Virus record (IMG/VR): IMGVR_UViG_3300032038_000033
Span: 40,461 to 104,460 of that record
Origin: a virus
Taxonomy: Duplodnaviria; Caudoviricetes
Direction: 5' to 3' (one strand)
DNA: 64,000 nucleotides
Made by a program: the position numbers and the translations under genes. Below the pieces are notes generated by a model. It was not told the DNA's origin. It worked only from the letters and a program-made list of their open reading frames with translations, and searched no databases. Positions 7,001 through 57,917 of this stretch are shown piece after piece. How positions within the stretch are numbered: the stretch's first letter is position 1; the number at the start of each line of letters is the position of its first letter.

Positions 7001-7075
7001 GGTCGGTTGGTCAAGTGGTTAAGACATTGACCTTTCACGGCAAAGTCACGGGTTCAATTCCTGTACCGACTACCA
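7001..7075 (+). tRNA. tRNA-Glu(TTC)
   Basis: Cloverleaf, loop CTTTCAC, GGTTCAATTCC T-arm, encoded CCA; one anticodon-stem mismatch. Confidence 0.9.
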
Positions 7076-7084
7076 AATCCGAAA

Positions 7085-7214
7085 TTATAAAATGATAGCT
7101 GATTTTATTTGAGTAGGCGTTGCTCACGTTACGAGAAGTCAGTTTTACGTTTCTGGCGCATAGGAAATTTAGATTAACGTGACCAATGGTTGTGAGGTAA
7201 ATCAACCTCCTATG
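7085..7214 (+). ncRNA. two-hairpin RNA with possible kissing loops
   Basis: AGCTGATTT/GAAGTCAGTT and CATAGGA/TCCTATG stems; loop segments TCACGTTA and TAACGTGA are complementary. Confidence 0.4.
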
Positions 7215-7215
7215 T

Positions 7216-7291
7216 TGGGTATTAGCCAAGTGGTAAGGCAGAGGACTTTGACTCCTTCATTTCGCTGGTTCAAATCCAGCATACCCAGCCA
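7216..7291 (+). tRNA. tRNA-Gln(TTG)
   Basis: TGGGTAT/ATACCCA acceptor, loop CTTTGAC, CCA. Confidence 0.93.
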
Positions 7292-7378
7292 TAGCCTATA
7301 AAGGCTTATTCATTTTTAATTTCTCGTTTCTGACAAATCGGAATAGACGGTTGACAGCTTGGACAGACAAGTATTTAT

Positions 7379-7449
7379 GTACCTGTAGTAGGTAGAGCAC
7401 CGTCCTTTTAAGGGGGTTGTCGTGAGTTCAAGTCTCACCAGGTACACCA
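7379..7449 (+). tRNA. degenerate tRNA-Lys(TTT) with truncated D-arm
   Basis: GTACCTG/CAGGTAC acceptor, CTTTTAA loop, normal T-arm and CCA, but the 5' D-stem (GCTCAG) is missing. Confidence 0.6.
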
Positions 7450-7451
7450 TT

Positions 7452-7556
7452 AAGAGTAAAGCGTTTATTCTGCTTAAAAAATTAGTTAACTTCCTTTTAT
7501 TTATTTGATGGATTGTGATTAGCAGAATGAGTTGGTTAACGAATAGCTTTACTCTT
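7452..7556 (+). ncRNA. structured RNA, closing stem plus pseudoknot (copy 2)
   Basis: AAGAGTAAAGC/GCTTTACTCTT; crossing helices ATTCTGCT/AGCAGAAT and TTAGTTAAC/GTTGGTTAA. Confidence 0.55.
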
Positions 7557-7560
7557 GTGC

Positions 7561-7637
7561 CGAGGTGTAACTCAGCTTGGTAGAGTGCTTGGTTTGGGAC
7601 CAAGATGCCATAGGTTCAAATCCTGTCACCTCGACCA
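7561..7637 (+). tRNA. tRNA-Pro(TGG)
   Basis: CGAGGTG/CACCTCG acceptor, loop TTTGGGA, CCA. Confidence 0.93.
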
Positions 7638-7662
7638 TAAAATAAGAAAGGAGTTAAGCAAA

Positions 7663-8085
7663 ATGATTACTTTATTAGAAAGTAAAGATAATGCCTTAAT
7701 AGGTATTTGGTGGTGGACTGGTAATGAAATCATTGGTAAATCTTGTTTAGTTGACAATGGATTTACAGATAATCGTTACATTCAATATTCTGATAAAGAA
7801 AATCATTTAACTCTTTGGAGAAAAATATGCGAAGAAAACAATATACCTAAAGAAATCATAAATAAAGGATATAAGTATTATGAGAGGGGAAGAGTAATCT
7901 ATAATCTTATGTCACAAAGTTTTGAAGTTATTCTTAGTCAAGATTTATATGGTAATAAAGATTTTAAACGTGAGTGTAAAGATTATTTCAATTTATATAA
8001 TTGTCGAGTAGAATTTATTCCATTAAATCATTATTACCGAGTTGATACAGATAATCCAGCTATATTAGATTTTGAATACGATTAA
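7663..8085 (+). CDS. hypothetical protein, N-terminal MITLLE motif
   Basis: AAGGAG RBS before ATG 7663; the longer 7555 start overlaps tRNA-Pro. Confidence 0.7.
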   Translation: MITLLESKDNALIGIWWWTGNEIIGKSCLVDNGFTDNRYIQYSDKENHLTLWRKICEENNIPKEIINKGYKYYERGRVIYNLMSQSFEVILSQDLYGNKDFKRECKDYFNLYNCRVEFIPLNHYYRVDTDNPAILDFEYD

Positions 8086-8133
8086 AGATAGGAAAGAATT
8101 TATTTACGATTATCTTAAAAGAATTACTAAAGT

Positions 8134-8187
8134 TTAACAATTACTTAACATTTATATAACATATTTTTAAATAATATGTGTTATACT
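8134..8187 (+). promoter_or_regulatory. direct-repeat/N31 promoter of the second tRNA operon
   Basis: TTAACA-N5-TTAACA (8134-8150), 31 bp, TATACT 8182-8187. Confidence 0.8.
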
Positions 8188-8366
8188 ATAATAGTAATAC
8201 AAATAAATAAGATTGGTGCTACGGGCTATGACTATGTTTACAACGTTTATGATATAGAGGCATCCGTTCGGGATATCCTCTTAGAGGAGTTGAACTTAAT
8301 AATAGGCTTTGAGTATTACACCAGCAGTAGTTAAATGGAGTTTGATGAACAGCCAATTTTATATAG

Positions 8367-8443
8367 GTGCCTTTAGCTCAGTTGGAAAGAGTAACTGCCT
8401 TCTAAGCAGTAGGTTATTGGTTCAAATCCAATAAGGCATACCA
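8367..8443 (+). tRNA. tRNA-Arg(TCT)
   Basis: GTGCCTT/AAGGCAT acceptor, ACTGC-CTTCTAA-GCAGT anticodon arm, CCA. Confidence 0.92.
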
Positions 8444-8779
8444 TATAAAGATTGTAGTGAGTATAAAGCCATAAGAAATTAAGATTTCAATGTACAAACT
8501 TATACTTTATAACTTCCGTACAAGGTTTAGTGTAAGAGAAATCAGAGATTAGATAAATGGTGTAGCGGTAGCACGTTTCCACTATAAGGAAAAGGGTAGC
8601 AGTTCAAGCCTGCATTTATCGACCAAAAAGAAAATCTCTTAAAATTAGTATCTTATGAAAAACAATGGTAAAATGAGAAGTTACAACTTAGTCGGTTTGG
8701 AGAAAGACTGTAGGTAAGTGATGTGTACACAAATCCTACCCATTGTCCTATAGGTGAAAATCCTATAGCAATCTTTATA
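8444..8779 (+). ncRNA. large structured RNA containing a nested tRNA-like element
   Basis: TATAAAGATTG/CAATCTTTATA closing stem, T-arm-like hairpin CTATAGG-TGAAAAT-CCTATAG at the 3' end, AGAGATT/AATCTCT stem enclosing 8551-8625. Confidence 0.5.
8551..8625 (+). tRNA. tRNA-like element, anticodon loop ACTATAA (nominal TAT, no U33)
   Basis: D-arm GGTGTAGCGGTAGCAC, TTTCC/GGAAA stem, GCAG-TTCAAGC-CTGC T-arm, ACCA end. Confidence 0.55.
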
Positions 8780-8785
8780 ATATAT

Positions 8786-8875
8786 CTATGTGTAGTATTT
8801 ATATCATGATACGCTCTGGCCAGAATATAAATATGATATTGGAAAATGTTAGTTCGATTCTAACCACATAGGCCA
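8786..8875 (+). ncRNA. tRNA-like RNA (acceptor and T-arm, aberrant middle)
   Basis: CTATGTG/CACATAG-G-CCA acceptor; GTTAG-TTCGATT-CTAAC T-arm; no canonical D or anticodon arm. Confidence 0.55.
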
Positions 8876-9108
8876 GCTGACTTGTCAATGTCGTTAAACT
8901 TGATAAGTGACAACAGCTTGAAAGCAATTTGGAAGTTGACGGTTCGTTTCCGTTTTAATGCAGAGTTTGGCTGCGCAATGACCTCTTTGTAAATGTGATT
9001 CCTCCTACTTGTTGCCGCTGTAAGGTGATTTATGAGTAAAAATACCGAAAGATATTTACAGCTATTGATTAGGTAAAGCTATCGTAGAGGATTGCCGATA
9101 GCAGATAT

Positions 9109-9184
9109 GCTGAATAATCCAAAGAAACGAGGTAATTTCCAAAGTGAAATTAATTAATTGGTGTAAGTCCAATATTCAGCACCA
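9109..9184 (+). ncRNA. tRNA-like RNA
   Basis: GCTGAAT/ATTCAGC-A-CCA acceptor, ATTGG-TGTAAGT-CCAAT T-arm-like hairpin, TAATTTC/GAAATTA stem with 6-nt loop. Confidence 0.5.
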
Positions 9185-9331
9185 GAGTTCCAGATAGCTT
9201 TAGAGGAAATACACATAAAATTTAGCTATCATAATTGTGTGTGGCGAGTGATACGTTGCATAAGGCTATTAAGTTAGGTCTGTTTATATCACAATAACTT
9301 ATGACAGTCTGGAAAGACAGACATTCATAAT

Positions 9332-9418
9332 GCTGCTGTGGTGGAATAGGCAGACACCTCGGACTTAAAATCCGATGATAGAAATATCGTACCAGTTCAA
9401 GTCTGGTCAGCAGCACCA
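9332..9418 (+). tRNA. tRNA-Leu(TAA)
   Basis: Leu-type D-arm GGTGGAATAGGCAGACAC, loop CTTAAAA, long variable arm, CCA. Confidence 0.93.
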
Positions 9419-9423
9419 TTTAT

Positions 9424-9499
9424 TCCTCCTTAACTCAGTCGGTAGAGTGACGCTCTGTTAAAGCGTAGGTCGTTGGTTCAAGTCCAACAGGGGGAGCCA
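9424..9499 (+). tRNA. tRNA-Asn(GTT)
   Basis: ACGCT-CTGTTAA-AGCGT anticodon arm, GCCA end. Confidence 0.93.
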
Positions 9500-9511
9500 T
9501 TTTAGGTATAA

Positions 9512-9602
9512 GGGCGTTAAATAAGCTACCAATGTATTAAATTCTAAACGGTGAAACGTTGAACGTTGGGTAGAGCGAGAATTTAATCCTTATTTAGCGC
9601 CC
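9512..9602 (+). ncRNA. structured RNA, closing stem plus pseudoknot (copy 3)
   Basis: GGGCGTTAAATAAG/CTTATTTAGCGCCC; crossing helices CTACCAATGT/ACGTTGGGTAG and ATTAAATTCT/AGAATTTAAT. Confidence 0.6.
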
Positions 9603-9610
9603 GTCTATAA

Positions 9611-9685
9611 GGCCCTTTGGTCAAGTGGTTAAGACGAGAGCTTTTCACGCTCTAATCGTGGGTTCGATTCCCGCAAGGGTCACCA
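9611..9685 (+). tRNA. tRNA-Glu(TTC), second copy
   Basis: AGAGC-TTTTCAC-GCTCT arm, GGTTCGATTCC, CCA. Confidence 0.93.
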
Positions 9686-9686
9686 T

Positions 9687-9828
9687 ATAGCCTATATAAG
9701 TTTAGTTTTTATCTTAGTTGTGGTTGTTGCGAATGAAACCGTCCTTTCATTAGTAAGTCTAATATTAAAAAATTAACACCCTCACAGTTAATTATTTATG
9801 TTTATTGACTAAATACTATATAGGCTAT
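9687..9828 (+). ncRNA. long irregular hairpin RNA
   Basis: ATAGCCTATATA/TATATAGGCTAT ends; nested TTTAGTT/GACTAAA and TTAGTTGTGG/TCACAGTTAA stems. Confidence 0.4.
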
Positions 9829-9833
9829 TATCT

Positions 9834-9909
9834 GTGTCTGTAGCTCAGTTGGTAGAGCAGAGCACTTTTAATGCTAAGGTCAAGGGTTCAAATCCCTTCA
9901 GGCACACCA
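9834..9909 (+). tRNA. tRNA-Lys(TTT)
   Basis: GTGTCTG/CAGGCAC acceptor, loop CTTTTAA, CCA. Confidence 0.93.
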
Positions 9910-17664: not shown

Positions 17665-17900
17665 ACCCTCAATAACACATAAAATGTGTTAGTATTATTA
17701 ATATTTTTAATAATACTTAGGGTATTAGCCTAAGTCTTGAAATAAAGACTACGTTATTTAAGAATGATATAGTTACCTTGGAATGTTTAGCCAAGTTCCA
17801 AGCTCTAAGGCTATTGTTTAAACAATCTTATAATTGTAGAGATAGTGATGATAGTAAAAACCTTAAATAACATTGGCGATGGCTACATTACAGTATTTTT
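17665..17900 (+). ncRNA. IscB omegaRNA (HEARO-like) scaffold
   Basis: TAGCCTAAGT...ACTACGTT...GCTCT...AAACA...AACATTGGCGATGG signature directly upstream of iscB. Confidence 0.85.
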
Positions 17901-17938
17901 AGATACTGAATTACTTAATTATAAGTTAGGAAGATTTT

Positions 17939-19186
17939 ATGGTGGTTTATGTTTTAGATATTGAGGGTAAACCTTTAATGCCTACTACAAGATTTGGCAA
18001 AGTAAGAAGAATGTTGAAAAATAAAGAAGCTAAGGTAGTTAAAAGAGAACCTTTTACTATTCAACTTCTTTATAAATCAACTATTTATACACAGCCTATA
18101 AATCTTGGTGTTGATGCTGGTAGTAAGACTATTGGTATTTCTGCTACTACTTCTGATAAAGAATTATTTTGTGCAGAAGTAAAATTAAGAAATGATATAG
18201 TTAATTTAATTGTTACAAAAAGAGAAGCAAGAAGAAATAGACGTAATAGAAAAACAAGATATCGTAAGGCAAGATTTAATAATAGAATTAGTACGAAGAA
18301 AGAAGGTTGGTTAGCTCCTTCTATTCAAAATAAGATTAATTCACATCTTACGATAATTGACAAAATAACAAAAATATTGCCGATTACAAATATTATAGTT
18401 GAAGTAGCTTCATTTGATATTCAGAAAATTAAAAATTCTAACATTCAAAGTAAAGAATATCAAGAAGGTGAACAACTTAGTTTTTGGAATGTTCGGGAAT
18501 ATGTTTTGTTTCGTGATAAGCATATCTGTCAATGTTGTAAAGGTAAATCAAAAGATAAGATACTTAATGTTCATCATATTGAAAGTAGAAAAACTGGTGG
18601 AAATGCCCCAAACAATTTAATTACTTTATGCGAAACTTGTCATACTAATTATCATAAAGGAAAAATTAATTTACCTAAGAATATAAAGCGTGGTATAAGT
18701 TTTAAAGACGCTACTTTTATGGGAATTATGCGTTGGGCTTTCTATAATAAATTAAAAGAAATTTATACAAATATAAAAATGACTTTTGGCTATATTACTA
18801 AAAATATAAGAATTAATAATAATTTGCCAAAAGAACATTATATTGATGCAAGATGTATAAGCGGAAATCCATTAGCTAAATCATTAGGAATTTGTTATAA
18901 ATATAAAAAAGTTAGATGTCATAATAGACAAATACATAAATTTGTTCCTAACAAGAAAGGTATAAGACAAGCTAATCAAGCATCTTATAAAGTATTTGGT
19001 TTTAGACTTAATGATAAAGTTTTATATAAAGGTCAAGTTTGTTTTATTAATGGTAGAAGACAAAGTGGTTATTTTAGTTTAAGAGATATTGATAACAATA
19101 AGATTGGAAATGATAATGTTTCTCATAAAAAGTTAAAATTTTTAGAACACAAAAAATCTTTACTTTGTCAATCTATTGTAATTTAA
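17939..19186 (+). CDS. iscB: RNA-guided endonuclease IscB
   Basis: PLMP, RuvC-I GVDAG, Arg-rich bridge helix, RuvC-II VEVASFD, HNH (CQCC..VHHI..NLITLCETCH), RuvC-III HYIDA. Confidence 0.95.
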   Translation: MVVYVLDIEGKPLMPTTRFGKVRRMLKNKEAKVVKREPFTIQLLYKSTIYTQPINLGVDAGSKTIGISATTSDKELFCAEVKLRNDIVNLIVTKREARRNRRNRKTRYRKARFNNRISTKKEGWLAPSIQNKINSHLTIIDKITKILPITNIIVEVASFDIQKIKNSNIQSKEYQEGEQLSFWNVREYVLFRDKHICQCCKGKSKDKILNVHHIESRKTGGNAPNNLITLCETCHTNYHKGKINLPKNIKRGISFKDATFMGIMRWAFYNKLKEIYTNIKMTFGYITKNIRINNNLPKEHYIDARCISGNPLAKSLGICYKYKKVRCHNRQIHKFVPNKKGIRQANQASYKVFGFRLNDKVLYKGQVCFINGRRQSGYFSLRDIDNNKIGNDNVSHKKLKFLEHKKSLLCQSIVI

Positions 19187-19429
19187 TATTTGTTAAAATT
19201 TATATTAATTATATTAGAAGGTGAATAAAAATGTGTACAATGTAGCTTTATTTGAATTGCTTAAAGAAGATTATCTTAAAAATAAGAAGATTATCGTAAA
19301 AATCCCCGTTTGTAAATAAATTAGCATTTTTAAAATATTACTATAAAAATAATAGTTTAAAACCTATTGTACATAGATTATAAAATAGTAGTTGTGATAA
19401 CTACTAATATTACATTTAAAGATTTCAAT

Positions 19430-19476
19430 ATACAATATGTTGTGTGTTGAAATCTTAAAATTACTACATATATAGA
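19430..19476 (+). promoter_or_regulatory. tandem NrdR-box-like sites
   Basis: ATACAATATGTTGTGT (19430) and TTACTACATATATAGA (19461), 31 bp apart, just before the nrdD RBS. Confidence 0.65.
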
Positions 19477-19493
19477 AAGGTTGGTAATTTGTT

Positions 19494-21719
19494 ATGCCAC
19501 AAAATGTAATAAAAAGAGATAAAAGCATAGTTGAATTTGACAGAGGAAAGATAGAAAGTGCTATTTCAAAAGCATATAAAGAAGTTTATCCTCAAATCAA
19601 TATTAGCAACTATGCTGTTATTATTAGTAATGCTACAGATAAGATATATAAGGAAATTTTATGGATAGCAGGTAATAATGAAAATATAGATATAGAAATT
19701 ATACAGGATATAGTAGAAAGAGAATTAATGGAATTAGATAAGAGTGTCGCTAAGGAGTACATTACTTATCGTTACAAGCGTCAGATAATGAGAGATAGTA
19801 ATACCACTGATGAAGTAATTAAAGAATTGATGTGTGGAGAAAGTGATTATTGGAACCATGAAAATTCTAATAAAAATCCTATAAGAGCTACTGTGCAAAG
19901 AGATTATTTAGCCGGTATTACAAGTACAGATATGACAAAAAGATTCTTATTACCTAAAGATATTAAAGATGCTGATGAAGCTGGTATATTACATTTTCAC
20001 GACCAAGATTATTTTATTCAACATATAACAAATTGTTGCTTAATTAATCTTGACGATATGTTGCAGAACGGTACTGTTATTAACGGAGTTCTCATTGAAA
20101 AACCCCATAGCTTTATAGTTGCTGCCACAGTAGCTACTCAAATTATTACTGCTGTTACAAGTAGTCAATATGGTGGTACTACTATAACATTAACAGATTT
20201 AGCACCATTTGTAAGAATTAGTTATAATAAACATTATGAAAAGTTTAAGTCTTGGGGTCTTAGTGAAGAGGATTGTGTTAAGTTTGCTAAGAAAGACTTA
20301 AAGAAAGAAATTGCTGACGGCGTACAAACATTTAATTATCAAGTTAATTCAATGTCAACTACTAATGGTCAATCACCTTTCCTTAGTGTGTTTATGTATC
20401 TCAATGAAACTGACGAATATAAAGAAGAACTTGCTATGTTAATAGAGGAATTTTTAAGACAAAGAATAGTAGGTTTAAAGAATGAAGTCGGAGTTTATAT
20501 TACACAAGCATTTCCTAAATTATTATATGTTCTTGAAGAAGATAATATGTATGAAGGAAGTAAATATTATTATTTAACAAAACTTGCAGCTGAGTGTACT
20601 GCAAAAAGAATGGTTCCAGACTACATTTCTGAAAAGGTAATGTTAAGAGATAAAGGAGATGTTTACCCCTGTATGGGCTGTCGAAGTTTTGCTACACCCG
20701 ATAGATTTACTGATAATGGTATCGGTAATATAGCAAATGCTAAAAATTATGTAGAGGGTAAGCATAGATATTACGGTAGATTTAATCAAGGTGTTGTTAC
20801 TTTAAATCTTGTAGATTTAGCATTATCTTCTAATAGAAATATGGAATTGTTTTGGAATTTATTTAATGAAAGAATGGATTTATGTCATAAGGCATTAAGA
20901 ATTAGACACGAAAGATTAAAAGGTACTTTATCAGATGTAGCACCTATTATGTGGCAACACGGAGCTTTAGCACGATTAGCTAAAGGTGAAACCATAGATA
21001 AATTATTATATAATGGATATTCTACCATCTCATTAGGTTATGCTGGATTGTATGAATGTGTTAAGTTTATGACTGGAGAAAGTCATTCTGAGCCAAATGG
21101 TATGAAATTTGGTCTTGAACTTATGGAAGCATTAAATAATAAGTGTAAGAAATGGAAAGAAGAAGAAAATATAGATTATTCTATCTACGGTACACCTATA
21201 GAATCAGCAACATATAAATTTGCTCAAAAACTTCAAAAGAGATTTGGCAGGGTAGAAGGTATTACTGATAGAAATTATATTACAAATAGTTATCATATTC
21301 CTGTGTTTGAAGAAATAAATCCTTACGAAAAACTTGCTATCGAAAGTAAATTCCAAAAGTTAAGTCCTGGTGGCGCTATATCATATATTGAATGTTGTGA
21401 TATGACACATAATATAGAAGGTGTTATAGATGTACTTAAATTTATTTATGATAATATAATGTATGCAGAACTTAACACAAAGAGCGATTATTGTCAAGTA
21501 TGTGGTTATGACGGTGAAATTAAGATTATTGATGAAGATAATCATTTAGATTGGGAATGTCCTAATTGTGGTAATAGGGACCATAGTAAAATGAATGTAA
21601 GTAGAAGAACGTGTGGATATATAGGAACTAATTTTTGGAATCAAGGTAGAACAGAAGAAATAGCAAATAGATATGTTCACTTAGATAATCATAAATACCA
21701 AGAAAAAGAGGTATGTTAA
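19494..21719 (+). CDS. nrdD: anaerobic (class III) ribonucleoside-triphosphate reductase
   Basis: ATP cone (VIKRD), TNCCL, MGCRS, CxxC..CxxC Zn site, RTCGYIG glycyl-radical loop. Confidence 0.97.
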   Translation: MPQNVIKRDKSIVEFDRGKIESAISKAYKEVYPQINISNYAVIISNATDKIYKEILWIAGNNENIDIEIIQDIVERELMELDKSVAKEYITYRYKRQIMRDSNTTDEVIKELMCGESDYWNHENSNKNPIRATVQRDYLAGITSTDMTKRFLLPKDIKDADEAGILHFHDQDYFIQHITNCCLINLDDMLQNGTVINGVLIEKPHSFIVAATVATQIITAVTSSQYGGTTITLTDLAPFVRISYNKHYEKFKSWGLSEEDCVKFAKKDLKKEIADGVQTFNYQVNSMSTTNGQSPFLSVFMYLNETDEYKEELAMLIEEFLRQRIVGLKNEVGVYITQAFPKLLYVLEEDNMYEGSKYYYLTKLAAECTAKRMVPDYISEKVMLRDKGDVYPCMGCRSFATPDRFTDNGIGNIANAKNYVEGKHRYYGRFNQGVVTLNLVDLALSSNRNMELFWNLFNERMDLCHKALRIRHERLKGTLSDVAPIMWQHGALARLAKGETIDKLLYNGYSTISLGYAGLYECVKFMTGESHSEPNGMKFGLELMEALNNKCKKWKEEENIDYSIYGTPIESATYKFAQKLQKRFGRVEGITDRNYITNSYHIPVFEEINPYEKLAIESKFQKLSPGGAISYIECCDMTHNIEGVIDVLKFIYDNIMYAELNTKSDYCQVCGYDGEIKIIDEDNHLDWECPNCGNRDHSKMNVSRRTCGYIGTNFWNQGRTEEIANRYVHLDNHKYQEKEVC

Positions 21720-22231
21720 TTATGAGATATGCTTCCATTAATAGTTTAGATATATCGAACGGTGAAGGTACTGGTGTAGCCCTGTTTACTCAGGGCTGCC
21801 TTAAGCATTGTAAAAATTGTTTTAATCCTGATACTTGGGATATAAATGGAGGTAAGGAATTTACGTCCGAAATACAAAAACAATTTTTAGAGTTAGTTGA
21901 TAAGTCCTATATATCAAGAGTAACATTTTTAGGTGGAGAACCCCTACTTGGAGAAAGTGCTTTTGGAGTTTCTAATTTAAGTGAGATTATTCATAATAAA
22001 TATCCTAATAAAAAACAATGGCTATATACAGGTTATACTTGGGAAGAATTACAAGAATTGAATTTATTGTCTTATATAAAATATATTGATATTGTAGTCG
22101 AAGGACCTTATATGGATGACCTTAAAGACTATGCTCTTAAATTTAGGGGTAGTAAAAATCAAAGAATTGTAGATGTTCAAAAATCTCTAACTACAAATTC
22201 CCTTGTCTTGTGGAAAGAAGGTAACTACTAA
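21713..22231 (+). CDS. nrdG: NrdD activating radical SAM enzyme
   Basis: GCLKHCKNCFN, LGGEP, FRGSKNQR. Confidence 0.96.
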   Translation: MLIMRYASINSLDISNGEGTGVALFTQGCLKHCKNCFNPDTWDINGGKEFTSEIQKQFLELVDKSYISRVTFLGGEPLLGESAFGVSNLSEIIHNKYPNKKQWLYTGYTWEELQELNLLSYIKYIDIVVEGPYMDDLKDYALKFRGSKNQRIVDVQKSLTTNSLVLWKEGNY

Positions 22232-23409
22232 TGAATAATAAATGGATAAGAGGTGCGTTACCTGCCGTACTAATTCATATAAGTATAGGCTCAGTTTATG
22301 CCTGGTCTTTATTTGTAAAACCTATATCAGATTATATAGGTCAAAGTCAAGCTAAAGTGCAGTTTGCATTTTCTTTGGCGATATTCTTTTTAGGTATGTC
22401 AGCAGCGTTTGGTGGCAAAATAGTTGAAAAGAATATACATAAATCATCTTTAATAAGTTGTTTATGTTTTTGTAGTGGACTTATATTAACATCATTTGCA
22501 ATAAGATATAAACAATTACCACTAATATATTTAGGTTATGGTTGTTTAATGGGTGTTGGACTGGGTACAGGATATATAACACCAGTTAAAACACTTATGT
22601 TATGGTTTAAGGAAAATAAAGGTTTAGCTACTGGTATTTCTGTATGTGCTTTCGGTTTTGCGAGTAGTGTAGCAAGCCCAATAATTACTTATCTAACTAA
22701 TAAAACGACTTTACCTAATACTTTTATTGTGTTAAGTTGTATTTATTTTGTACCTATGATGATAGCACATTTTATAATTAAGAAGCCTGATGGCTGGGTA
22801 GAAGTTGCTAATAAAGATGACACATTTAAAGTATCTTCAATGTGGAAACAAAAAGAATTTGTATTTATATGGATAATAATATTTATTAATATTACTTGCG
22901 GATTAGCATTAATATCAACAGCAAGTCCTATAATGGTAGAGCATAACATAAACACTAAAACAATAGCTATTATAGTTAGTATTATGGGTATATTTAATGG
23001 GTGTGGTAGATTAGTATTTTCCGCATTTTCCGATAAGCTAAAACAGAGAATAACAATATATAAAATAATCTTAATGTTATCTATTAGTACATCTATAATA
23101 ACAAGATTATATACTAATACAATTACGATAGCTATTTCATTGGCTGTTATTTCTGCTTGCTATGGTGCTGGATTTAGTTGTTTGCCGACATTATTATCCG
23201 ATATATATGATATGAAACATATATCTCAAATACACGGATTGTCTTTAACAGCTTGGGCGATAGCCGGCTTAGTAGGAAATCAAATAAGTAGTATAACAAA
23301 AAGTGTTACAGGCTCTTATAATAATGTTTATTTTATTATATGTGGAATGTATAGTTTTGCTTTAATCTTTACATTCTTGATTAAAACTAATGAATTGAAA
23401 AAAGTTTGA
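22231..23409 (+). CDS. OFA (oxalate/formate antiporter-type) family MFS transporter
   Basis: About 12 TM helices; IGSVYAWS, GYITPVKTLMLWF..KGLATG, FNGCGRL, CYGAGFS and HGLSLTAWAIAG motifs. Confidence 0.88.
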   Translation: MNNKWIRGALPAVLIHISIGSVYAWSLFVKPISDYIGQSQAKVQFAFSLAIFFLGMSAAFGGKIVEKNIHKSSLISCLCFCSGLILTSFAIRYKQLPLIYLGYGCLMGVGLGTGYITPVKTLMLWFKENKGLATGISVCAFGFASSVASPIITYLTNKTTLPNTFIVLSCIYFVPMMIAHFIIKKPDGWVEVANKDDTFKVSSMWKQKEFVFIWIIIFINITCGLALISTASPIMVEHNINTKTIAIIVSIMGIFNGCGRLVFSAFSDKLKQRITIYKIILMLSISTSIITRLYTNTITIAISLAVISACYGAGFSCLPTLLSDIYDMKHISQIHGLSLTAWAIAGLVGNQISSITKSVTGSYNNVYFIICGMYSFALIFTFLIKTNELKKV

Positions 23410-23777
23410 TATAAATAAAACATAAACATTGTGGCATAAAAATACTACAATGTTTATGTTTTATTAACATTTAATTTATTTTAAAAACATAATTATGTGT
23501 TATAATTTTAGTACAGTTAAGTGGAGGTTTAAAAAACATTGGATAATTATTTCATCACATACACTAATAAAGACGAGTTTAATAAAATTATGAACTATGC
23601 TTCTTCCATAAGTGCTAAACTACCTAATGGACATTATATATCTAAATATGGTAAGAAAGCATTATTTATAGAAGGAACTGCCTATATTATATTCGAGAAA
23701 AAGAAAGATACATACTACATAAATAATGTCATAGAAGTTGATAAGAATACATTTACAGAAAAGAGTTTAGATGAACT

Positions 23778-24401
23778 ATGAAGAAAAAGATATTGATTGT
23801 TGGACGCACAGGCTCAGGTAAAGACTATTTAGCTAATAGACTTTGTGATAGAGGTTTTACACAGGTAAAATCCTATACAACCAGACCTAAAAGAACTGAA
23901 AATGAAGATACACATATATTTATCACAAAAGATGATGCTAAAAAATATAAAGATAGAGTTGCCGAAACAGTTATTGATGATGTAGAATATTTTGCTACAA
24001 GAGAACAATTAAAAAATAATGATATTTATGTAATTGACCCTAATGGTTTATATACATTATTAAATAAGGTAACTAAAGAAAAGTTTGTAATTATATATGT
24101 TTCAGCTCTTACTCAATTAAGAATAGATAAAGCTATTGAACGTGTTAAAAAGGTTTTAACTTATGATGAGGCCATATATAAAATAACATTAAGAGATAAA
24201 GCAGAGAATGCACAATTTAAACAATTTGAATATTATATGTCTAAGCACACATTCATAAAAGACAATGGTTTATTGACTGGATATCTTGATTTAACTAAAT
24301 TTAAAGATTATAAATTCTATATTTATCCTAATAACTATCATAAAGATTACTGTGAACATTGGATAGATTCTTTTCTTATTGATTTAGGTTTATCTGAATA
24401 A
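23778..24401 (+). CDS. guanylate kinase-like P-loop protein
   Basis: GRTGSGKD, SYTTRPKR, HIFI, VIDPNG. Confidence 0.85.
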   Translation: MKKKILIVGRTGSGKDYLANRLCDRGFTQVKSYTTRPKRTENEDTHIFITKDDAKKYKDRVAETVIDDVEYFATREQLKNNDIYVIDPNGLYTLLNKVTKEKFVIIYVSALTQLRIDKAIERVKKVLTYDEAIYKITLRDKAENAQFKQFEYYMSKHTFIKDNGLLTGYLDLTKFKDYKFYIYPNNYHKDYCEHWIDSFLIDLGLSE

Positions 24402-25330: not shown

Positions 25331-26107
25331 ATGAAAGTAGAATTAATATCATATACACCTAACCCTGAAAAAGTAGTAGCGACTGCTGCCAAATTATGTT
25401 ATTCCAGTAGTAATATAGAAAATCTACAAGAAAATTTAACTGATGATATTATTAGTAATTTTGTAGAAAAGTTAGCTTCTATACATCACGAAAGTCCATT
25501 TGAACATATTAGTTTTACATTTGGCATTGAAGGTGTTAGTCGTAGTTTAACACATCAGTTAGTTCGACATAGGATTGCAAGTTATTCTCAGAAGTCGCAG
25601 AGATATGTGAGTGAAGATAATTTTGAATATATAGTACCAAAGGCAATTCAAAATAGTAGTTTTTGTACTGATATATTTAATGATACTATGAAATGTATTA
25701 ATAGTGCTTATAAAGATATAAAGGATTGTTTAGAAAAGAAATTTATTGAACAACTTATAAAAGAAGGCTTAAATGAAAAGACTGCCAAACAGAAAGCAAG
25801 TAAATTGGCAGCCGAAAATGCAAGAGCTGTACTCCCCAATGCTTGTGAGACTAAAATAATAGTAACTATGAACGCTCGTTCCTTGTTTAATTTCTTTGCT
25901 CATAGATGTTGTAATCGAGCACAAGATGAAATAAGAGAACTTGCTACTGAAATGTATAAACTTGTATATGCTATTGCACCTAATATATTTAAACATAGTG
26001 GACCTAATTGTGTTGCGACTGGTAAATGTCCAGAGGGTAATATGTGTTGTGGCAAAATGATACAAATGAAAGAAAAGTTTAATGAAATAAAGGCAGATAA
26101 GATATGA
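25331..26107 (+). CDS. thyX: flavin-dependent thymidylate synthase
   Basis: HESPFEH, RSLTHQLVRHRIASYSQKSQRY, ARAVLP, AQDEIR. Confidence 0.97.
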   Translation: MKVELISYTPNPEKVVATAAKLCYSSSNIENLQENLTDDIISNFVEKLASIHHESPFEHISFTFGIEGVSRSLTHQLVRHRIASYSQKSQRYVSEDNFEYIVPKAIQNSSFCTDIFNDTMKCINSAYKDIKDCLEKKFIEQLIKEGLNEKTAKQKASKLAAENARAVLPNACETKIIVTMNARSLFNFFAHRCCNRAQDEIRELATEMYKLVYAIAPNIFKHSGPNCVATGKCPEGNMCCGKMIQMKEKFNEIKADKI

Positions 26108-39059: not shown

Positions 39060-40512
39060 TATTATAGTAAAAATAATAAAGGAGAATTAAGAATTATGAA
39101 AACTTATATACTTAAAGATAAAAAACAGCAACCTACATTTAAATATTTTGTACAGAAGGAAGGAAGTAATAATTATTATCTATTTAATGAGTTTGATAAG
39201 GCTTTTGATAAGATGAGAGAATTATATAATTCTTATCTTCTTGAACCTATATTTGTACCAATGAACAGAGAATGGAAAATGAGAAGAACTTTTATATGTA
39301 GAGAGTTTAAAACTGATTATTTAGGTGATAGTGGTGATATACTGTTACATACAAAATTTTATTGTGACGCTGGTGAATGTATAAATTATGTGTTATTTGA
39401 GAAAGGACTGAATTGATATGAGCGAATTTCAAAAAGAATATCAAAGACTATGCGAAATAGATAGAAAAATAACTGAAGAAATGGTCAGAGATGGTGAATT
39501 AACGGAAGAGGAAGGTTATATGCGAAATGATTTTCGTAGATTAGAAATTTTAATGGAGATGGATGACGATTATGAATAATATAAAACTGAGATTTGAAGA
39601 ATTAAGAAATGAAATAAAAGATTATTATGATGATTTATATGATATATACCATATGAGCATTATGCCAAATTCTAATTTGTTTAAAATTTATCATGAACAT
39701 TACGTTTTCGATGAAGATAAGTCTGTAAAGTGGAATAAGGAACAGGTAGAACTTAAAAATGAAGAATATAAGCAGGAAAAAGAACGTTTAATTAAACTTA
39801 GAGATAAAGAATGGAAAGAATTGAGTAGTAAGATAGCAAGAAGGTTATTAGAAGCTTCGCAGAATTGGTATCGTGATGAAATTAAGTTATCACTTAAACA
39901 GTTAAATTTAATTGTACTTTATGCTATGGAATATGCACCAAAAAATTATGAACCCACTAACATTATTGATTCAATTATGCTTAATTTGAATCTTGCTGTA
40001 GATTTAAATATTTAATTAATGAGTAGATAGGAGATAGATGATTTATGAGCTTTAAAGGGTATCTTGATTATACAAAATACTATAAGTCAAATACTAAACT
40101 AATTAAATTTAAAGTTGTAAATATTGGAGATGTTTTACAAAGAGAACTTACAACAGTCATTAAGTTATCTGATAATTATAATTACAATAAAAGAATGAGT
40201 GAACAACAAAGTAATGCTTTTTGTTTAAATTCCAGACATTATATCGTAGTACACCTAGAAAGTAATTGGGTCTTAGTTAAATCACTAAAAGATTTTTAAA
40301 TAAGATATGTAAAGGGTGTGATAAATAATGATAGAACTAATTCCAATTAAAGATAGAAAAGGTAAATGTTGTCTTTGTGGCTCTGAGTTTATAAAATATA
40401 GAATTATATATAGAACAACTACAAGAGATGTGTGTAATGTTTGTGCTTTGGTCCATTTATATATAAGTGAAGACATAAAAACTGTAAGTGAATTGAATGA
40501 AAAACATCAAAG

Positions 40513-50872: not shown

Positions 50873-51208
50873 ATGAGACACATTGAAGGAATTAAATATG
50901 AGTATTTTATTGTTTGTAGAATAAATTGTAAATATAAGTTTTTGTCCATAGCAAATAAAGACAATACAACATATACTCCAGGTCAATATTTCTTTGGAAA
51001 TAATTATAATGAAGTTTTGGTTTTTAATACATCTGAAGAAGCAAATAATTTTAAAATAACAAATGATGGAGTTTTACAGTACACTCGAATTATTCTTGAA
51101 AAAGAAGGTTTTGGTGTAGGTGCATTTGAAATTGTTTCAGTTCCTCGTAAGGAATTGTTTGAATTGGAAAACTATATGTCAACTACTCACGAGGCTAAAG
51201 CCTTGTAG
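50873..51208 (+). CDS. hypothetical protein whose last codons derive from the IscB element
   Basis: Native end ENY-ILKEIGKND* reconstructed from 52791-52818. Confidence 0.6.
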   Translation: MRHIEGIKYEYFIVCRINCKYKFLSIANKDNTTYTPGQYFFGNNYNEVLVFNTSEEANNFKITNDGVLQYTRIILEKEGFGVGAFEIVSVPRKELFELENYMSTTHEAKAL

Positions 51209-51440
51209 CTTGTAATAGGCTCAAATTGACTACCTTTAGTTCTATTTAGAACTACATTACTTTCGTTATTACACCTACAAATGATTCCCAAGTTTGTAGC
51301 AACTGTGAAGGCTCTGTAAACAGTTCTGTGGAGTAGGAACAGTCAACCTTATGTGTTCGATTACGACAAGCGATTGTAATATTAGGGAAGGGAAACAAAC
51401 TTTCATTTAGAAAGGGGTGCTACTTGCGAGTTGGCACTAA
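51178..51440 (+). ncRNA. IscB omegaRNA scaffold
   Basis: GTCAA..TTGAC, ACTAC, CACC..TG..CCCAAGT, AAACAG..CAGTC, ATTAGGGAAGGG signature. Confidence 0.85.
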
Positions 51441-51452
51441 AAGGTATTACTT

Positions 51453-52733
51453 ATGAACAAAGGAAATAGAGTTTTTGTACTCAATATGAGAGGTAAATCT
51501 CTTATGCCTTGCACTCAAAGAAAAGCCAGAATACTTCTAAAAAAAGGAAAGGCAATTATCAAAAAGTATAATCCATTTACAATTCAGTTGACTTATGTAA
51601 CTGGTGAAGCAAAACAAGATTGTAATATTGGCGTAGATACTGGTGCAAAGCATATAGGTATTGCTATTACTTCTGGAGATAAAGTGCTTTATAAAGCAGA
51701 AATAGAATTAAGACAAGATATTAAGTCAAATCTTGACACAAAACGAATTTACCGTAGAAGTAGAAGAAATCGTAAAACAAGATACCGTAAACCACGTTTT
51801 CTTAATCGTAAAAGAACAGATAAATGGTTGCCTCCAAGTCTACAAACAAGAATTAACCATACATTCCGTTGGATAGATATATTTAATACTCTCTTACCTA
51901 ATGCTATTTTACATATAGAAGTGGGTAAATTTGACACAGCAAAGATGATAAATCCTGAGATAAATGGTGTAGACTATCAACAGGGGCAAACATATGGTTT
52001 CTTTGATGAAAGATATTATGTATTTGCAAGAGATAATTATACTTGTCAAGTATGCAAGTGTAAAAATAAAATACTACGAACACATCATATAATTTATCGT
52101 AGTAATGGTGGTACTAATAGAGTAAATAATTTAATTACAGTTTGTACAGATTGTCATACATCGGAGAATCATAAAAAAGGTGGTATTTTATATAAATGGC
52201 AAAAAGAACATAAAAAAGTAAAACAATACAAAGAACCACCATTTATGAATATACTTCGTAAAAGAATATTTACTCAATATCCGTCAGCAGTTATAACTTA
52301 TGGTTCAGAAACAACGCCAAAACGAAAGCAAATGCAATTAGATAAGACACATTATAATGACGCTATTGTTATAAGTGGGATAAACACTATAAAAGAATGT
52401 CCTAATGAGTGGTTACTTATAAAGCAATTTCGTAAAAAGAAGCGTTCATTACACGAAGCAACTGCTCGTAAAGGTAGAAAAGAACCAAATAGAACACAGA
52501 AACGAAATAGTAAAAATACACCTTATTATAAAGGCTTCTATTTGAATGATAGAGTGTTTACATTAGGAAAAGTAGGATATATAACAGGATTTACAAGTGG
52601 TGGTGTATATATAAAAAATCAAAAAGACGAATACATAACATTACCTAACAAAACATATAAACAAGTAGGAATTGCTAATATAAGATTGATAAATCATAAC
52701 AATAATTGGCAATATTTTAGTCAAGTTGGGTAA
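51453..52733 (+). CDS. iscB: RNA-guided endonuclease IscB
   Basis: SLMPC, GVDTG, bridge helix, IEVGKFD, HNH (CQVC..THHI..NLITVCTDCH), HYNDA. Confidence 0.95.
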   Translation: MNKGNRVFVLNMRGKSLMPCTQRKARILLKKGKAIIKKYNPFTIQLTYVTGEAKQDCNIGVDTGAKHIGIAITSGDKVLYKAEIELRQDIKSNLDTKRIYRRSRRNRKTRYRKPRFLNRKRTDKWLPPSLQTRINHTFRWIDIFNTLLPNAILHIEVGKFDTAKMINPEINGVDYQQGQTYGFFDERYYVFARDNYTCQVCKCKNKILRTHHIIYRSNGGTNRVNNLITVCTDCHTSENHKKGGILYKWQKEHKKVKQYKEPPFMNILRKRIFTQYPSAVITYGSETTPKRKQMQLDKTHYNDAIVISGINTIKECPNEWLLIKQFRKKKRSLHEATARKGRKEPNRTQKRNSKNTPYYKGFYLNDRVFTLGKVGYITGFTSGGVYIKNQKDEYITLPNKTYKQVGIANIRLINHNNNWQYFSQVG

Positions 52734-55819: not shown

Positions 55820-56431
55820 ATGAAAACTAAAGATGTATTAAGAGTTTTAGGTATTACCCGTCCTACATTAACTAAATATGTTAAAAATGGAACTATAGGT
55901 ATTACTGAATTAGCTAATGGTAGATATGATTATAACGAAGATGATGTTTATAAATTTTTAAATAAAGATTGTAAACGTAAAACAGTTATATATGCCAGAG
56001 TTTCTACTAAAAAACAAAAGAAAGACCTTGAAAATCAAATAGAAATGTTAAAGCAATTTTGTTTTATGAATGGATATACATTAAGCGGTATCTATTCTGA
56101 TATTGCAAGTGGTATTTCTTTTGAAAATAGAAAAGAATTTTTTACTTTACTTGATGAAGTTATTGCAGGTAAAGTCGATAAAGTTATCATTACTTACAAA
56201 GATAGACTTTCTCGTGTTGGATTTGAATTATTTAAACATTTATTTTTAAGATTTAATACTCAAATTATTGTACTTTCTGAAATCGGCAATACTAAATTAG
56301 ATTCAGAAGAAATATTTGAAGAGATTATAAGTCTTTTACATTGTTATTCAATGAAGTTATATTCAAAGCGAAATAGAGCTAAGATACAAGAGATTATAAC
56401 TAATTCAGAAGAAAGTGATACAAATGAGTAA
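55820..56431 (+). CDS. tnpA: IS607 serine recombinase TnpA
   Basis: N-terminal MerR-like HTH, YARVST, SDIASG, DRLSRVG. Confidence 0.93.
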   Translation: MKTKDVLRVLGITRPTLTKYVKNGTIGITELANGRYDYNEDDVYKFLNKDCKRKTVIYARVSTKKQKKDLENQIEMLKQFCFMNGYTLSGIYSDIASGISFENRKEFFTLLDEVIAGKVDKVIITYKDRLSRVGFELFKHLFLRFNTQIIVLSEIGNTKLDSEEIFEEIISLLHCYSMKLYSKRNRAKIQEIITNSEESDTNE

Positions 56432-57917
56432 TACTGAAAATAATTATATTGTGGAATTACCTTTATTTGTAGAATCCTGGCAAGCAGATATAATTGATAC
56501 ACGATTAGAGATTGGCAGAAAAATTTATAATGCTTTATTAAACATAGTAGTAAAGCGTTACAATGAACTTACTAAAACTAAGTTATATAGAAATCTTAAA
56601 GAACAGTTAGTTTCAGCTCTTAAAATAAAGAATAAAGAAGTTAGTAAAGATATAGGCAAACAATTAAGTGATTTAGAAAAACAATATAAACTCACTAAAT
56701 TTGATATAATAAATGATGTTAAAGAAATGCAACATCATTTTAAATGTCATATACATTCAAGAGTAGCACAAGAAATAGCTAAAAATGTTTATACTGCTTT
56801 GTATTCTGTACTTTATAAAAATGGTAAAGAATTTCATTTTAAGAAGTTTGGAACATTTAATAGTTTGCAAAGTAATGAAATTAATCAGGCTATTATTTTT
56901 AATACAGATTATGTTAGTTGGACAGGATTACAATTAGCTGTAAAATATCCTAATAACATTAAATTTCAACAATATCTTCAATATAATTTATTTGATAATA
57001 TAGATAAATTACGTTATTGTGCTATTATACGGAAATATATAAGAGGTAAACGAAGATACTATGTACAACTTACATTTAGAGGTAATATAAAGCATACAAA
57101 ACGTAAATTAGGTTTTGGTAGAGTAGGTTTGGATATAGGTACATCTACATTAGCAATTTCGTCTAATAATGCTGTTGATTTAATTGAATTAGCAGACAAA
57201 GTTCAGAATGTTGAAAAAGATATTAAAAGACTTCAACGTAAGATGGATAGAAGTAGAAGAGCTAATAATCCTAATAAATACAATGCTGATGGAACATATA
57301 AAAAGAATAATAAAGATAAGTGGAAAAATTCAAACCGTTATATTAAATATAGAAATGAACTTAGAGAATTATTCAGAAAACAGTCTGTTATCCGTAAATT
57401 ACAACATAATCAATTAAGTAATTATATTATATCATTAGGAAATGAATTTTTTGTAGAGACTATGAATTTCAAAGGATTACAAAAAAGAAGTAAGAAAACT
57501 GAAAAGAAAGCTAATGGTAGATATAAATGTAAAAAACGTTATGGTAAATCTTTAGGTAATCGTGCTCCGTCTATGTTGCTTACATTACTTAGTAATAAAT
57601 TAAAACATCTAAATAAAGAACTTGTAAAAATTAATACTCAACAATGTAAAGCAAGTCAATTTAATCATATTACAGGTGAATATAAAAAGAAATCTTTAGG
57701 TCAACGCTGGAATATGATTAATGATAGATTAGTTCAGAGAGACTTGTATTCAGCATTTCTAATATCTAATGTAAATAATACTTTAGATTCATTTAATATT
57801 TCATTATGTAATGAAAAATTTGATAATTTCTTATTATTACACGATAATAAAATAAATGAATTAAAAGTACAAAAGAATTTAACCAATAAATCATTTCTAT
57901 CTTGTATGGGAATATAA
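56424..57917 (+). CDS. tnpB: IS607-associated TnpB
   Basis: RuvC GLDIG, FVETMNF, QRDLYSA; RLQRKMDRSRR helix. Confidence 0.92.
   Translation: MSNTENNYIVELPLFVESWQADIIDTRLEIGRKIYNALLNIVVKRYNELTKTKLYRNLKEQLVSALKIKNKEVSKDIGKQLSDLEKQYKLTKFDIINDVKEMQHHFKCHIHSRVAQEIAKNVYTALYSVLYKNGKEFHFKKFGTFNSLQSNEINQAIIFNTDYVSWTGLQLAVKYPNNIKFQQYLQYNLFDNIDKLRYCAIIRKYIRGKRRYYVQLTFRGNIKHTKRKLGFGRVGLDIGTSTLAISSNNAVDLIELADKVQNVEKDIKRLQRKMDRSRRANNPNKYNADGTYKKNNKDKWKNSNRYIKYRNELRELFRKQSVIRKLQHNQLSNYIISLGNEFFVETMNFKGLQKRSKKTEKKANGRYKCKKRYGKSLGNRAPSMLLTLLSNKLKHLNKELVKINTQQCKASQFNHITGEYKKKSLGQRWNMINDRLVQRDLYSAFLISNVNNTLDSFNISLCNEKFDNFLLLHDNKINELKVQKNLTNKSFLSCMGI

Follow-up and report, generated by a model that had tools for sequence, protein, structure and literature searches.

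What does a phage gain from a membrane transporter gene at the end of its operon for anaerobic deoxyribonucleotide synthesis? The question is raised by a stretch of 64,000 nucleotides (positions 40,461 to 104,460 of the IMG/VR virus record IMGVR_UViG_3300032038_000033; hereafter "the window") in which nrdD and nrdG, encoding an anaerobic ribonucleotide reductase (RNR) and its activase, are directly followed by the gene of a carrier of the major facilitator superfamily (MFS). We consider it fairly probable that this carrier is a formate importer which has been joined to nrdDG and that formate serves NrdD as reductant and is used as one-carbon donor as well; we infer both the cargo and the inward direction of transport from the comparisons described below. 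The unit (19187-23465) comprises the following features:

19187..19493, plus strand: intergenic leader of 307 nt ahead of nrdD, containing promoter-like hexamers and GAAAGG as ribosome-binding site
19494..21719, plus strand: nrdD, class III (anaerobic) ribonucleoside-triphosphate reductase, 741 amino acids (profiles, alignments)
21713..22231 (likelier start ATG 21722), plus strand: nrdG, radical-SAM activase of NrdD (TIGR02491, Fer4_12, CxxxCxxC)
22231..23409, plus strand: MFS carrier, 392 amino acids, proposed formate (monocarboxylate) importer (PF07690, SfMCT and OxlT alignments)
23414..23465, plus strand: long AT-rich stem-loop of 21 + 2 bp with a U-rich stretch after it, probably an intrinsic terminator (folding)

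The three genes constitute a single transcription unit. The stop codon of nrdG and the start codon of the MFS gene have TAATG at 22229-22233 in common, and whichever start is assigned to nrdG, at most 2 nt separate it from nrdD, so that neither a promoter nor a terminator can fit inside the unit. If nrdG started at ATG 21713, it would overlap nrdD by 7 nt and would be devoid of a suitably spaced ribosome-binding site, while ATG 21722 is located 10 nt after AAGAGG and 2 nt past the nrdD stop and is therefore the likelier start. Hence, the overlap of nrdD with nrdG reported in a preliminary description of this locus exists with the former start and gives way to a 2-nt gap with the latter. The shared TAATG, the 392-residue transporter, the assignment to one operon and the strong hairpin, which were reported there as well, agree with coordinates, sequence and folding. 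With a free energy of -23.5 kcal/mol (z = -7.46 versus shuffled sequences, none of 200 being as stable) the hairpin at 23414-23465 probably closes the unit as an intrinsic terminator; its absence from the list of a GC-based terminator scan is due to its AT-richness. Sites resembling promoters (19357-19386, 19409-19436) occur no more often than in shuffled sequences and do not fix the position of the promoter. The G+C content at third codon positions of the MFS gene (0.173) virtually equals that of nrdD (0.171), from which we conclude that the transporter gene has acquired phage composition.

Judged from its sequence, the NrdD of the window is assigned to the formate class (NrdD1) represented by the enzymes of T4, E. 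coli and P. copri. The criteria for this assignment, namely the finger loop and the presence of either an Asn or a third Cys, were drawn from PMC4493059 and PMC11226230. The finger loop of T4 NrdD reads 288-MGCR-291, versus SCCR in enzymes of the Thermotoga-like NrdDh subclass, to which the latter motif is limited, and the T. maritima enzyme is inactive with formate and needs a protein factor (PMC4493059). In the formate class the third Cys is absent with an Asn in its place (PMC11226230), and the reductant is formate (PMC11226230, PMC4493059). The finger loop C-M394-G-C396-R-S of the window's NrdD aligns with the MGCR of T4, and Asn431 aligns with the T4 Asn within GRxNxGVVTLNL, where redoxin-dependent types carry the third Cys; it is this match of an MGCR-type loop and Asn431 with the published criteria on which the assignment is based. 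The MGCRS motif named in the preliminary description is thus borne out by the alignment. That description had also taken both the Met and the Arg flanking the catalytic Cys as marks of formate-dependent enzymes; the difference between Met-Gly and Ser-Cys is indeed diagnostic, but the Arg is not as it is also present in SCCR (PMC4493059). The protein consists of an ATP-cone, PF13597 (594 bits) and Gly_radical (65 bits) and matches NF006732 with 849 bits (cut-off 657). Further sites comprise the bottom-face Cys C181, the Zn-ribbon cysteines C667/C670/C689/C692 and the glycyl radical motif RRTCG708Y. Among solved structures, 9d3x (417 bits) and T4 NrdD 1h78 (367 bits) come closest, with the MGCRS and NxGVVTLNL blocks aligned. 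NrdG matches TIGR02491 with 156.9 bits (cut-off 126.1) as well as Fer4_12 and contains the radical-SAM motif C-LKH-C-KN-C. The pair accordingly shares with nrdD-nrdG (sunY) of T4 the MGCR-type finger loop, the Asn, the Zn ribbon, the glycyl radical site and the NrdG activase, and with T4 and other phage class III RNR operons the role of supplying phage-made dNTPs under anoxia. In contrast to the window, T4 has no transporter, and the crystallised T4 chain is devoid of the ATP-cone found here.

The transporter is an intact MFS carrier under purifying selection. It matches PF07690 with 98.8 bits (residues 22-349), a crude hydropathy scan yields 11-13 segments, and the pairwise ratios of nonsynonymous to synonymous substitution rates (dN/dS) range from 0.10 to 0.18, including pairs which span exchanges of the nrdD type (see below). 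OxlT, the oxalate:formate antiporter of Oxalobacter formigenes, is the prototype of the OFA family 2.A.1.11 and has formate among its substrates. The best curated match of the phage protein, however, is NF049980, the family of SfMCT L-lactate carriers (293.7 bits, cut-off 320), whose profile scores 216-218 for cellular homologues of the transporter, while the profiles of OFA (TIGR00890, 173.8 versus a cut-off of 374.85) and OxlT (TIGR04259, 114.6 versus 335) remain far below their thresholds. Among solved structures, SfMCT (6g9x, 95 bits, residues 22-390) and OxlT (8hpj, 85 bits) are about equally distant. By its profile scores, the protein falls in no curated family; it is placed in a subfamily without a name, intermediate between SfMCT (SLC16-like) and OxlT (OFA). 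The earlier assignment to the OFA family thus holds in the sense of an OFA/SLC16-like carboxylate carrier and fails in the strict sense, since the OFA and OxlT cut-offs are not reached and SfMCT is the closer curated relative.

Aligning the ligand site of SfMCT (PMC6573034) onto the transporter maps the substrate pocket to V22, Y115, V138, F141, N256, R260, Y311, F315, L339 and W342. Five of the nine ligand-contacting residues of SfMCT, which make up its carboxylate clamp, are kept (Y119 as Y115, N276 as N256, R280 as R260, Y331 as Y311 and F335 as F315), and four are altered (L28 to V22, L145 to F141, F359 to L339 and C362 to W342). The proton site H250/R256/D257 is not retained either, the corresponding residues being T230/V236/E237. 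SfMCT, an L-lactate:H+ symporter and SLC16 homologue of Syntrophobacter fumaroxidans (PDB 6G9X/6HCL), has the same 12-helix MFS architecture and the same clamp in common with the phage carrier; it differs in the four ligand residues and the proton site, scores just about 95 bits in direct comparison, and the genomic contexts described below point to formate rather than lactate. OxlT (8HPJ, TIGR04259) belongs to the same MFS branch, and the Arg of its transmembrane helix TM8, R272, aligns with R260. The second basic residue of OxlT, K355 in TM11, to which the remaining carboxylate of oxalate is bound, is replaced by W342, an invariant Trp across phage and cellular homologues, and genes for the degradation of oxalate are absent nearby. 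The single Arg/Asn/Tyr clamp of SfMCT together with a Trp at the second basic position indicates a monocarboxylate, not oxalate, as cargo. Oxalate, which the preliminary description had named among the substrates of OFA transporters, and an exchange of oxalate for formate were thus discarded as the second basic residue required for a dicarboxylate is missing.

Which monocarboxylate is transported is indicated by bacterial relatives of the carrier. All ten pocket positions are identical between phage and cellular homologues down to about 40% identity, which, along with the low dN/dS values, favours a retained transport function. Among 399 Clostridia genomes, 37 harbour a homologue, and Rfam scans of 17 + 29 cellular loci revealed two ZMP/ZTP (pfl-motif, RF01750) riboswitches above the gathering score, both on the same strand as the transporter gene, and were otherwise negative. 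In genome G007 (locus L148) the aptamer (61.6 bits) is located 85 nt before the start of a monocistronic MFS gene and overlaps a terminator. In G249 (L162) the aptamer (58.4 bits) is followed by pflB (TIGR01255, 1157 bits), pflA (TIGR02493, 279 bits) and, after a gap of 17 nt, the MFS gene. In G368, pflB-pflA and the MFS gene face each other in convergent orientation. The family that includes both G007 and G249 comprises 18 genomes, each of which carries one or two ZTP riboswitches. The second riboswitch governs pflB in G142 and G223, the pflB-pflA-MFS operon in G249 and nothing but the MFS gene in G007. No pflB was detected above the cut-off in G007 (best score 110 bits versus 994), fhs being present; its relatives contain both pflB and fhs. 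The ZTP regulon supplies formyl-tetrahydrofolate (formyl-THF), with fhs consuming and pfl producing formate, and is switched on when formyl-THF is short (PMC2864571). A carrier taking the place of pyruvate formate-lyase (PFL) under a ZTP switch would, therefore, most simply be a formate importer. The logic resembles that of focA-pflB of enterobacteria in so far as G249 and G368 have a predicted formate carrier beside pflB-pflA. It differs in that the carrier is of the MFS type instead of a pentameric FNT channel, that its gene in G249 follows pflA under a ZTP riboswitch, and that the partner enzyme in the phage, NrdD, consumes formate rather than producing it. The phage copies of the transporter gene are not preceded by a riboswitch. 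In the Oscillospiraceae genome G001, which contains the closest cellular MFS homologue, the sole ZTP riboswitch (L131, G001:C1:937552-937628) directly precedes fhs, encoding formate-THF ligase, and not the MFS gene.

From these observations the following course of events is conceivable. The infecting phage would place the carrier in the host membrane and take up external formate, which would serve as reductant of the formate-class NrdD (NTP + formate -> dNTP + CO2). Via the formate-THF ligase of the host (Fhs), formate would in addition provide one-carbon units to purine synthesis and to the phage-encoded ThyX. The latter role would account for the presence of the carrier beside NrdDs that depend on a redoxin, which are found in two related operons.

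The finger loop reads MGCRS in the window and at loci L090, L105, L005, L085 and L086, and TMGCRT at L083, L093 and L002, whose enzymes have their nearest counterpart in the NrdD of P. copri (385 bits), which requires formate. In L087 and L094, by contrast, it reads S-S/N-C-C-R-L (SCCR), and these NrdDs are closest to that of T. maritima (221 and 488 bits). Both SCCR operons open with a small gene for a glutaredoxin/thioredoxin-like protein, which is followed by nrdD, nrdG and the MFS gene (L087:5240-8005, L094:3075-5770); in L087 only, a 69-aa ORF with a borderline match to ferredoxin-thioredoxin reductase (FTR) is inserted between nrdG and the MFS gene. The make-up of these operons resembles the NrdD/NrdH/ferredoxin-disulfide-reductase system of Methanosarcina. 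In the tree of the MFS proteins, L094 (SCCR) is sister to L083 (TMGCRT; node value 100), and L087 (SCCR) nests with L085 and L090 (MGCRS; 99). These placements indicate that nrdD has been exchanged while the transporter was retained, with at least two swaps of type. The idea that the transporter tracks formate-class NrdD alone was consequently abandoned, as L087 and L094 pair it, under purifying selection, with SCCR NrdDs which have a redoxin of their own. Since the carrier is thus not specific to formate-type NrdD, the twofold role as reductant and one-carbon donor fits better. What had been proposed at the outset, import or retention of formate to fuel dNTP synthesis, is supported with respect to the cargo by the ZTP and pflBA contexts and the identical pocket; the exclusive link to formate-type NrdD via the reductant is not.

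The arrangement recurs well beyond the window. Homologues of the transporter number in the thousands, the top 120 with 60-99% identity, and alignment-based scans yielded 9 viral, 39 metagenome and 80 cellular loci, while scanning viral contigs with the single transporter protein retrieved only one distant locus. Among GenBank phages there is no close relative of either the operon or the transporter (best match 25% identity). Directly upstream of the MFS gene, nrdD and/or nrdG are present in L083, L084, L085, L086, L087, L089, L090, L093, L094, L095, L096, L105, L111 and L005; L002 has the reverse order with the transporter homologue upstream of nrdD-nrdG. In total, about 15 further phage or metagenome contigs show the linkage, and they have almost nothing else in common. 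This recurrence argues against a chance arrangement, and in the window and several relatives the transporter is translationally coupled to nrdG. The search for nrdDG-transporter synteny in phage genomes suggested by the preliminary description has thus been successful in related as well as unrelated phages. No linkage to nrdDG is seen in one clade (L088, L110 and short relatives), in L100, or in L003 and L004, the closest of the cellular copies. The module is rare yet strongly non-random. The idea that phage nrdDG operons commonly include the transporter was discarded, and its rarity follows from a comparison with the phage NrdD loci closest to that of the window (55-71% identity), only two of 80 of which carry it.

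Some of the related loci merit separate mention. L005 (JAUNSK010000003.1) is a 221-kb contig of an Oscillospiraceae metagenome-assembled genome; its nrdD-nrdG-MFS-ThyX region consists of short co-oriented ORFs, shares six genes with the window and probably belongs to a large phage that was binned into this genome. In L086 (2443-4521) and L089 (2503-7504), nrdD is divided into two or three ORFs with inserts of 0.3-1 kb between them, which suggests introns or insertions of homing endonucleases as in T4 nrdD. The transporter homologue of L002 (7989-9178) reads as two ORFs (160 + 230 aa), for which a frameshift, an error of sequencing or decay of the gene may be responsible. L085 and L237 are the two ends of one 112-kb contig, IMGVR_UViG_3300031853_000007, and nrdD spans both of them, suggesting the assembly of a circular or circularly permuted genome.

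Several observations weigh against formate as cargo, and some of these speak in favour of a different one. According to the main rival explanation, a monocarboxylate with three carbons (pyruvate or L-lactate) is taken up, in analogy to SfMCT, the characterised carrier most closely related to the phage protein. In the host, PFL would then generate formate for formate-class NrdD, and PFOR would deliver reduced ferredoxin or flavodoxin for the activation of NrdG and for redoxin-type NrdD. Both the best curated family and the best solved structure point to SfMCT, an L-lactate carrier, which in competition experiments requires acids of at least three carbons and ignores shorter ones (PMC6573034), so that the resemblance alone would favour lactate over formate. 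The score for NF049980 stays, however, just under the cut-off, and two residues lining the lactate site of SfMCT are replaced by bulkier ones (L145 by F141, C362 by W342), F359 has become L339 and the proton site is lost (PMC6573034). Redoxin-type NrdDs, which should have no need of formate as reductant, accompany the transporter in two phage operons; three-carbon import would explain the retention of the carrier beside these SCCR enzymes with their own glutaredoxin-like gene and the weakly FTR-like ORF. The ZTP-pflB-pflA-MFS operon of G249 is equally sensible if the carrier brings in pyruvate as substrate of PFL. In G007, on the other hand, the riboswitch controls the carrier alone with pflB undetected, and imported pyruvate could not relieve a shortage of formyl-THF, although the missing pflB could be due to incomplete assembly. 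Extracellular free pyruvate is, moreover, scarce in gut and rumen, where formate is a common excreted product. We therefore regard three-carbon import as unlikely, and transport in the outward direction or the lack of any metabolic link as less likely still. Among the cellular loci, a ZTP riboswitch is present in only two of about 46, both from one small bacterial family, and PFL adjoins in only two of about 33. The majority of cellular copies stand as single-gene units whose neighbours are uninformative, and the neighbours of the closest homologues (asparaginase, MgsA, CNNM, MetH, cation efflux and others) give no clue to function.

A carrier working mainly outwards or in both directions, which like FocA disposes of formate or another acid or buffers the cytoplasmic pH during the infection burst, appears improbable to us. 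MFS carriers are reversible in principle, and the adjacency of pflBA and the MFS gene, be it as pflB-pflA-MFS or otherwise, mirrors focA-pflB, whose channel exports the PFL product in E. coli. Nevertheless, the ZTP riboswitch is on when formyl-THF is short (PMC2864571), a situation in which the export of formate would make little sense; in G007 the riboswitch controls the carrier and no pflB was detected, and a phage which encodes a formate-consuming enzyme gains nothing by export. Slightly less credence still is given to the absence of any metabolic link, the gene being a passenger at a recombination-prone spot by nrdDG or encoding a membrane protein for, e.g., superinfection exclusion. The region is a hotspot of insertion, as is evident from its homing endonucleases, from IscB-like elements and from split nrdD genes; most phage nrdDG operons do without the transporter (78 of the 80 closest NrdD loci mentioned above), and the clade of L088, L110 and their relatives as well as L100 are not located beside nrdDG. 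A mere passenger would hardly be expected, though, to adjoin nrdDG in about 15 otherwise dissimilar contigs, to survive at least two swaps of the nrdD type, to be coupled translationally to nrdG and to keep all pocket residues of its cellular homologues at dN/dS values of 0.10-0.18. Import of formate consequently remains the reading which we prefer.

As to the genomic surroundings, the source record is a 104-kb virus entry with an estimated completeness of 58%. The part of the record that precedes the window contains genes for a helicase loader, a DnaB-type helicase, a primase, a split DNA polymerase, clamp, clamp loader and a UvsX-type recombinase, and the window itself encodes a tRNA cluster, an NAD-ligase and ThyX; no structural genes are present on the record fragment. 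According to this gene content, the sole reasonable reading of the record is the replication arm of a phage. The phage is a large one that presumably infects strict anaerobes (gut or rumen bacteria), and the nrdD-nrdG-MFS unit belongs to the arm of its genome devoted to nucleotide metabolism. ThyX is encoded at 25331-26107, 2 kb downstream of the transporter gene, and marks the end of the nucleotide module, to which a 207-aa ORF just past the operon (23778-24401) may contribute a dNMP kinase, as it shows weak P-loop kinase matches (guanylate kinase-like, E ~0.003). Two HEARO RNAs (RF02033, 103 and 114 bits) are found at 17722-19186 and 51178-52733, each directly 5' of an ORF (415 and 426 aa, respectively) that combines RRXRR and HNH domains. 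Both represent RNA-guided nuclease elements of the IscB/OMEGA-like type in a phage. One of them adjoins nrdD on its upstream side, and L094 has a homologue (44%) of the ORF upstream of its own nrdD. Eight tRNA genes are clustered at 7001-9909 (ARAGORN: Glu x2, Gln, Pro, Arg, Leu, Asn, Lys), with two additional weak Rfam tRNA matches at 7379-7446 and 8551-8622. The ORF at 56415-57917 (500 aa) scores 148 bits against phrog_506, a family of phage transposases.

While auxiliary metabolic genes of phages are a familiar phenomenon, phages seldom carry a complete secondary transporter. To our knowledge, no phage transporter feeds the reductant of the phage's own ribonucleotide reductase, and in the literature searched we found no description of an OFA/MCT-type transporter linked to phage nrdDG or of a ZTP-controlled MFS formate carrier, in line with the initial impression that the module had not been described. 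An auxiliary metabolic gene of uptake is the cyanophage pstS, encoding a phosphate-binding protein. Like the present carrier it is a phage-encoded uptake component easing a nutrient bottleneck for nucleotide and DNA synthesis; here, however, a complete secondary carrier is concerned, which is translationally coupled to the enzymes that would use the imported molecule as co-substrate. Our confidence is evenly divided on the broader proposal that there is a family of MFS-type formate importers, unrelated to the FNT channels FocA and FdhC, which substitutes for or accompanies PFL in the ZTP regulon of Clostridia and which rumen and gut phages have captured and joined to class III RNR operons; the phage carrier would then be the first importer encoded by a virus that supplies a co-substrate of RNR and a one-carbon donor.

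Should the carrier indeed import formate, dNTP supply in the infected cell would be limited by a small excreted fermentation product, and phage replication in rumen and gut would be tied to the cross-feeding of formate between species. The operons in which a redoxin, an SCCR-type NrdD and NrdG precede the MFS gene would represent a natural experiment on the purpose of the carrier, as the chemistry of the RNR has been swapped and the carrier kept. In bacteria, a transporter would be added to the ZTP riboswitch regulon along with a candidate family of non-FNT formate importers, and a widespread uncharacterised MFS subfamily, occurring in Clostridia, Trichococcus, Bifidobacterium and others, would be given a function in the uptake of formate for purine and one-carbon metabolism.

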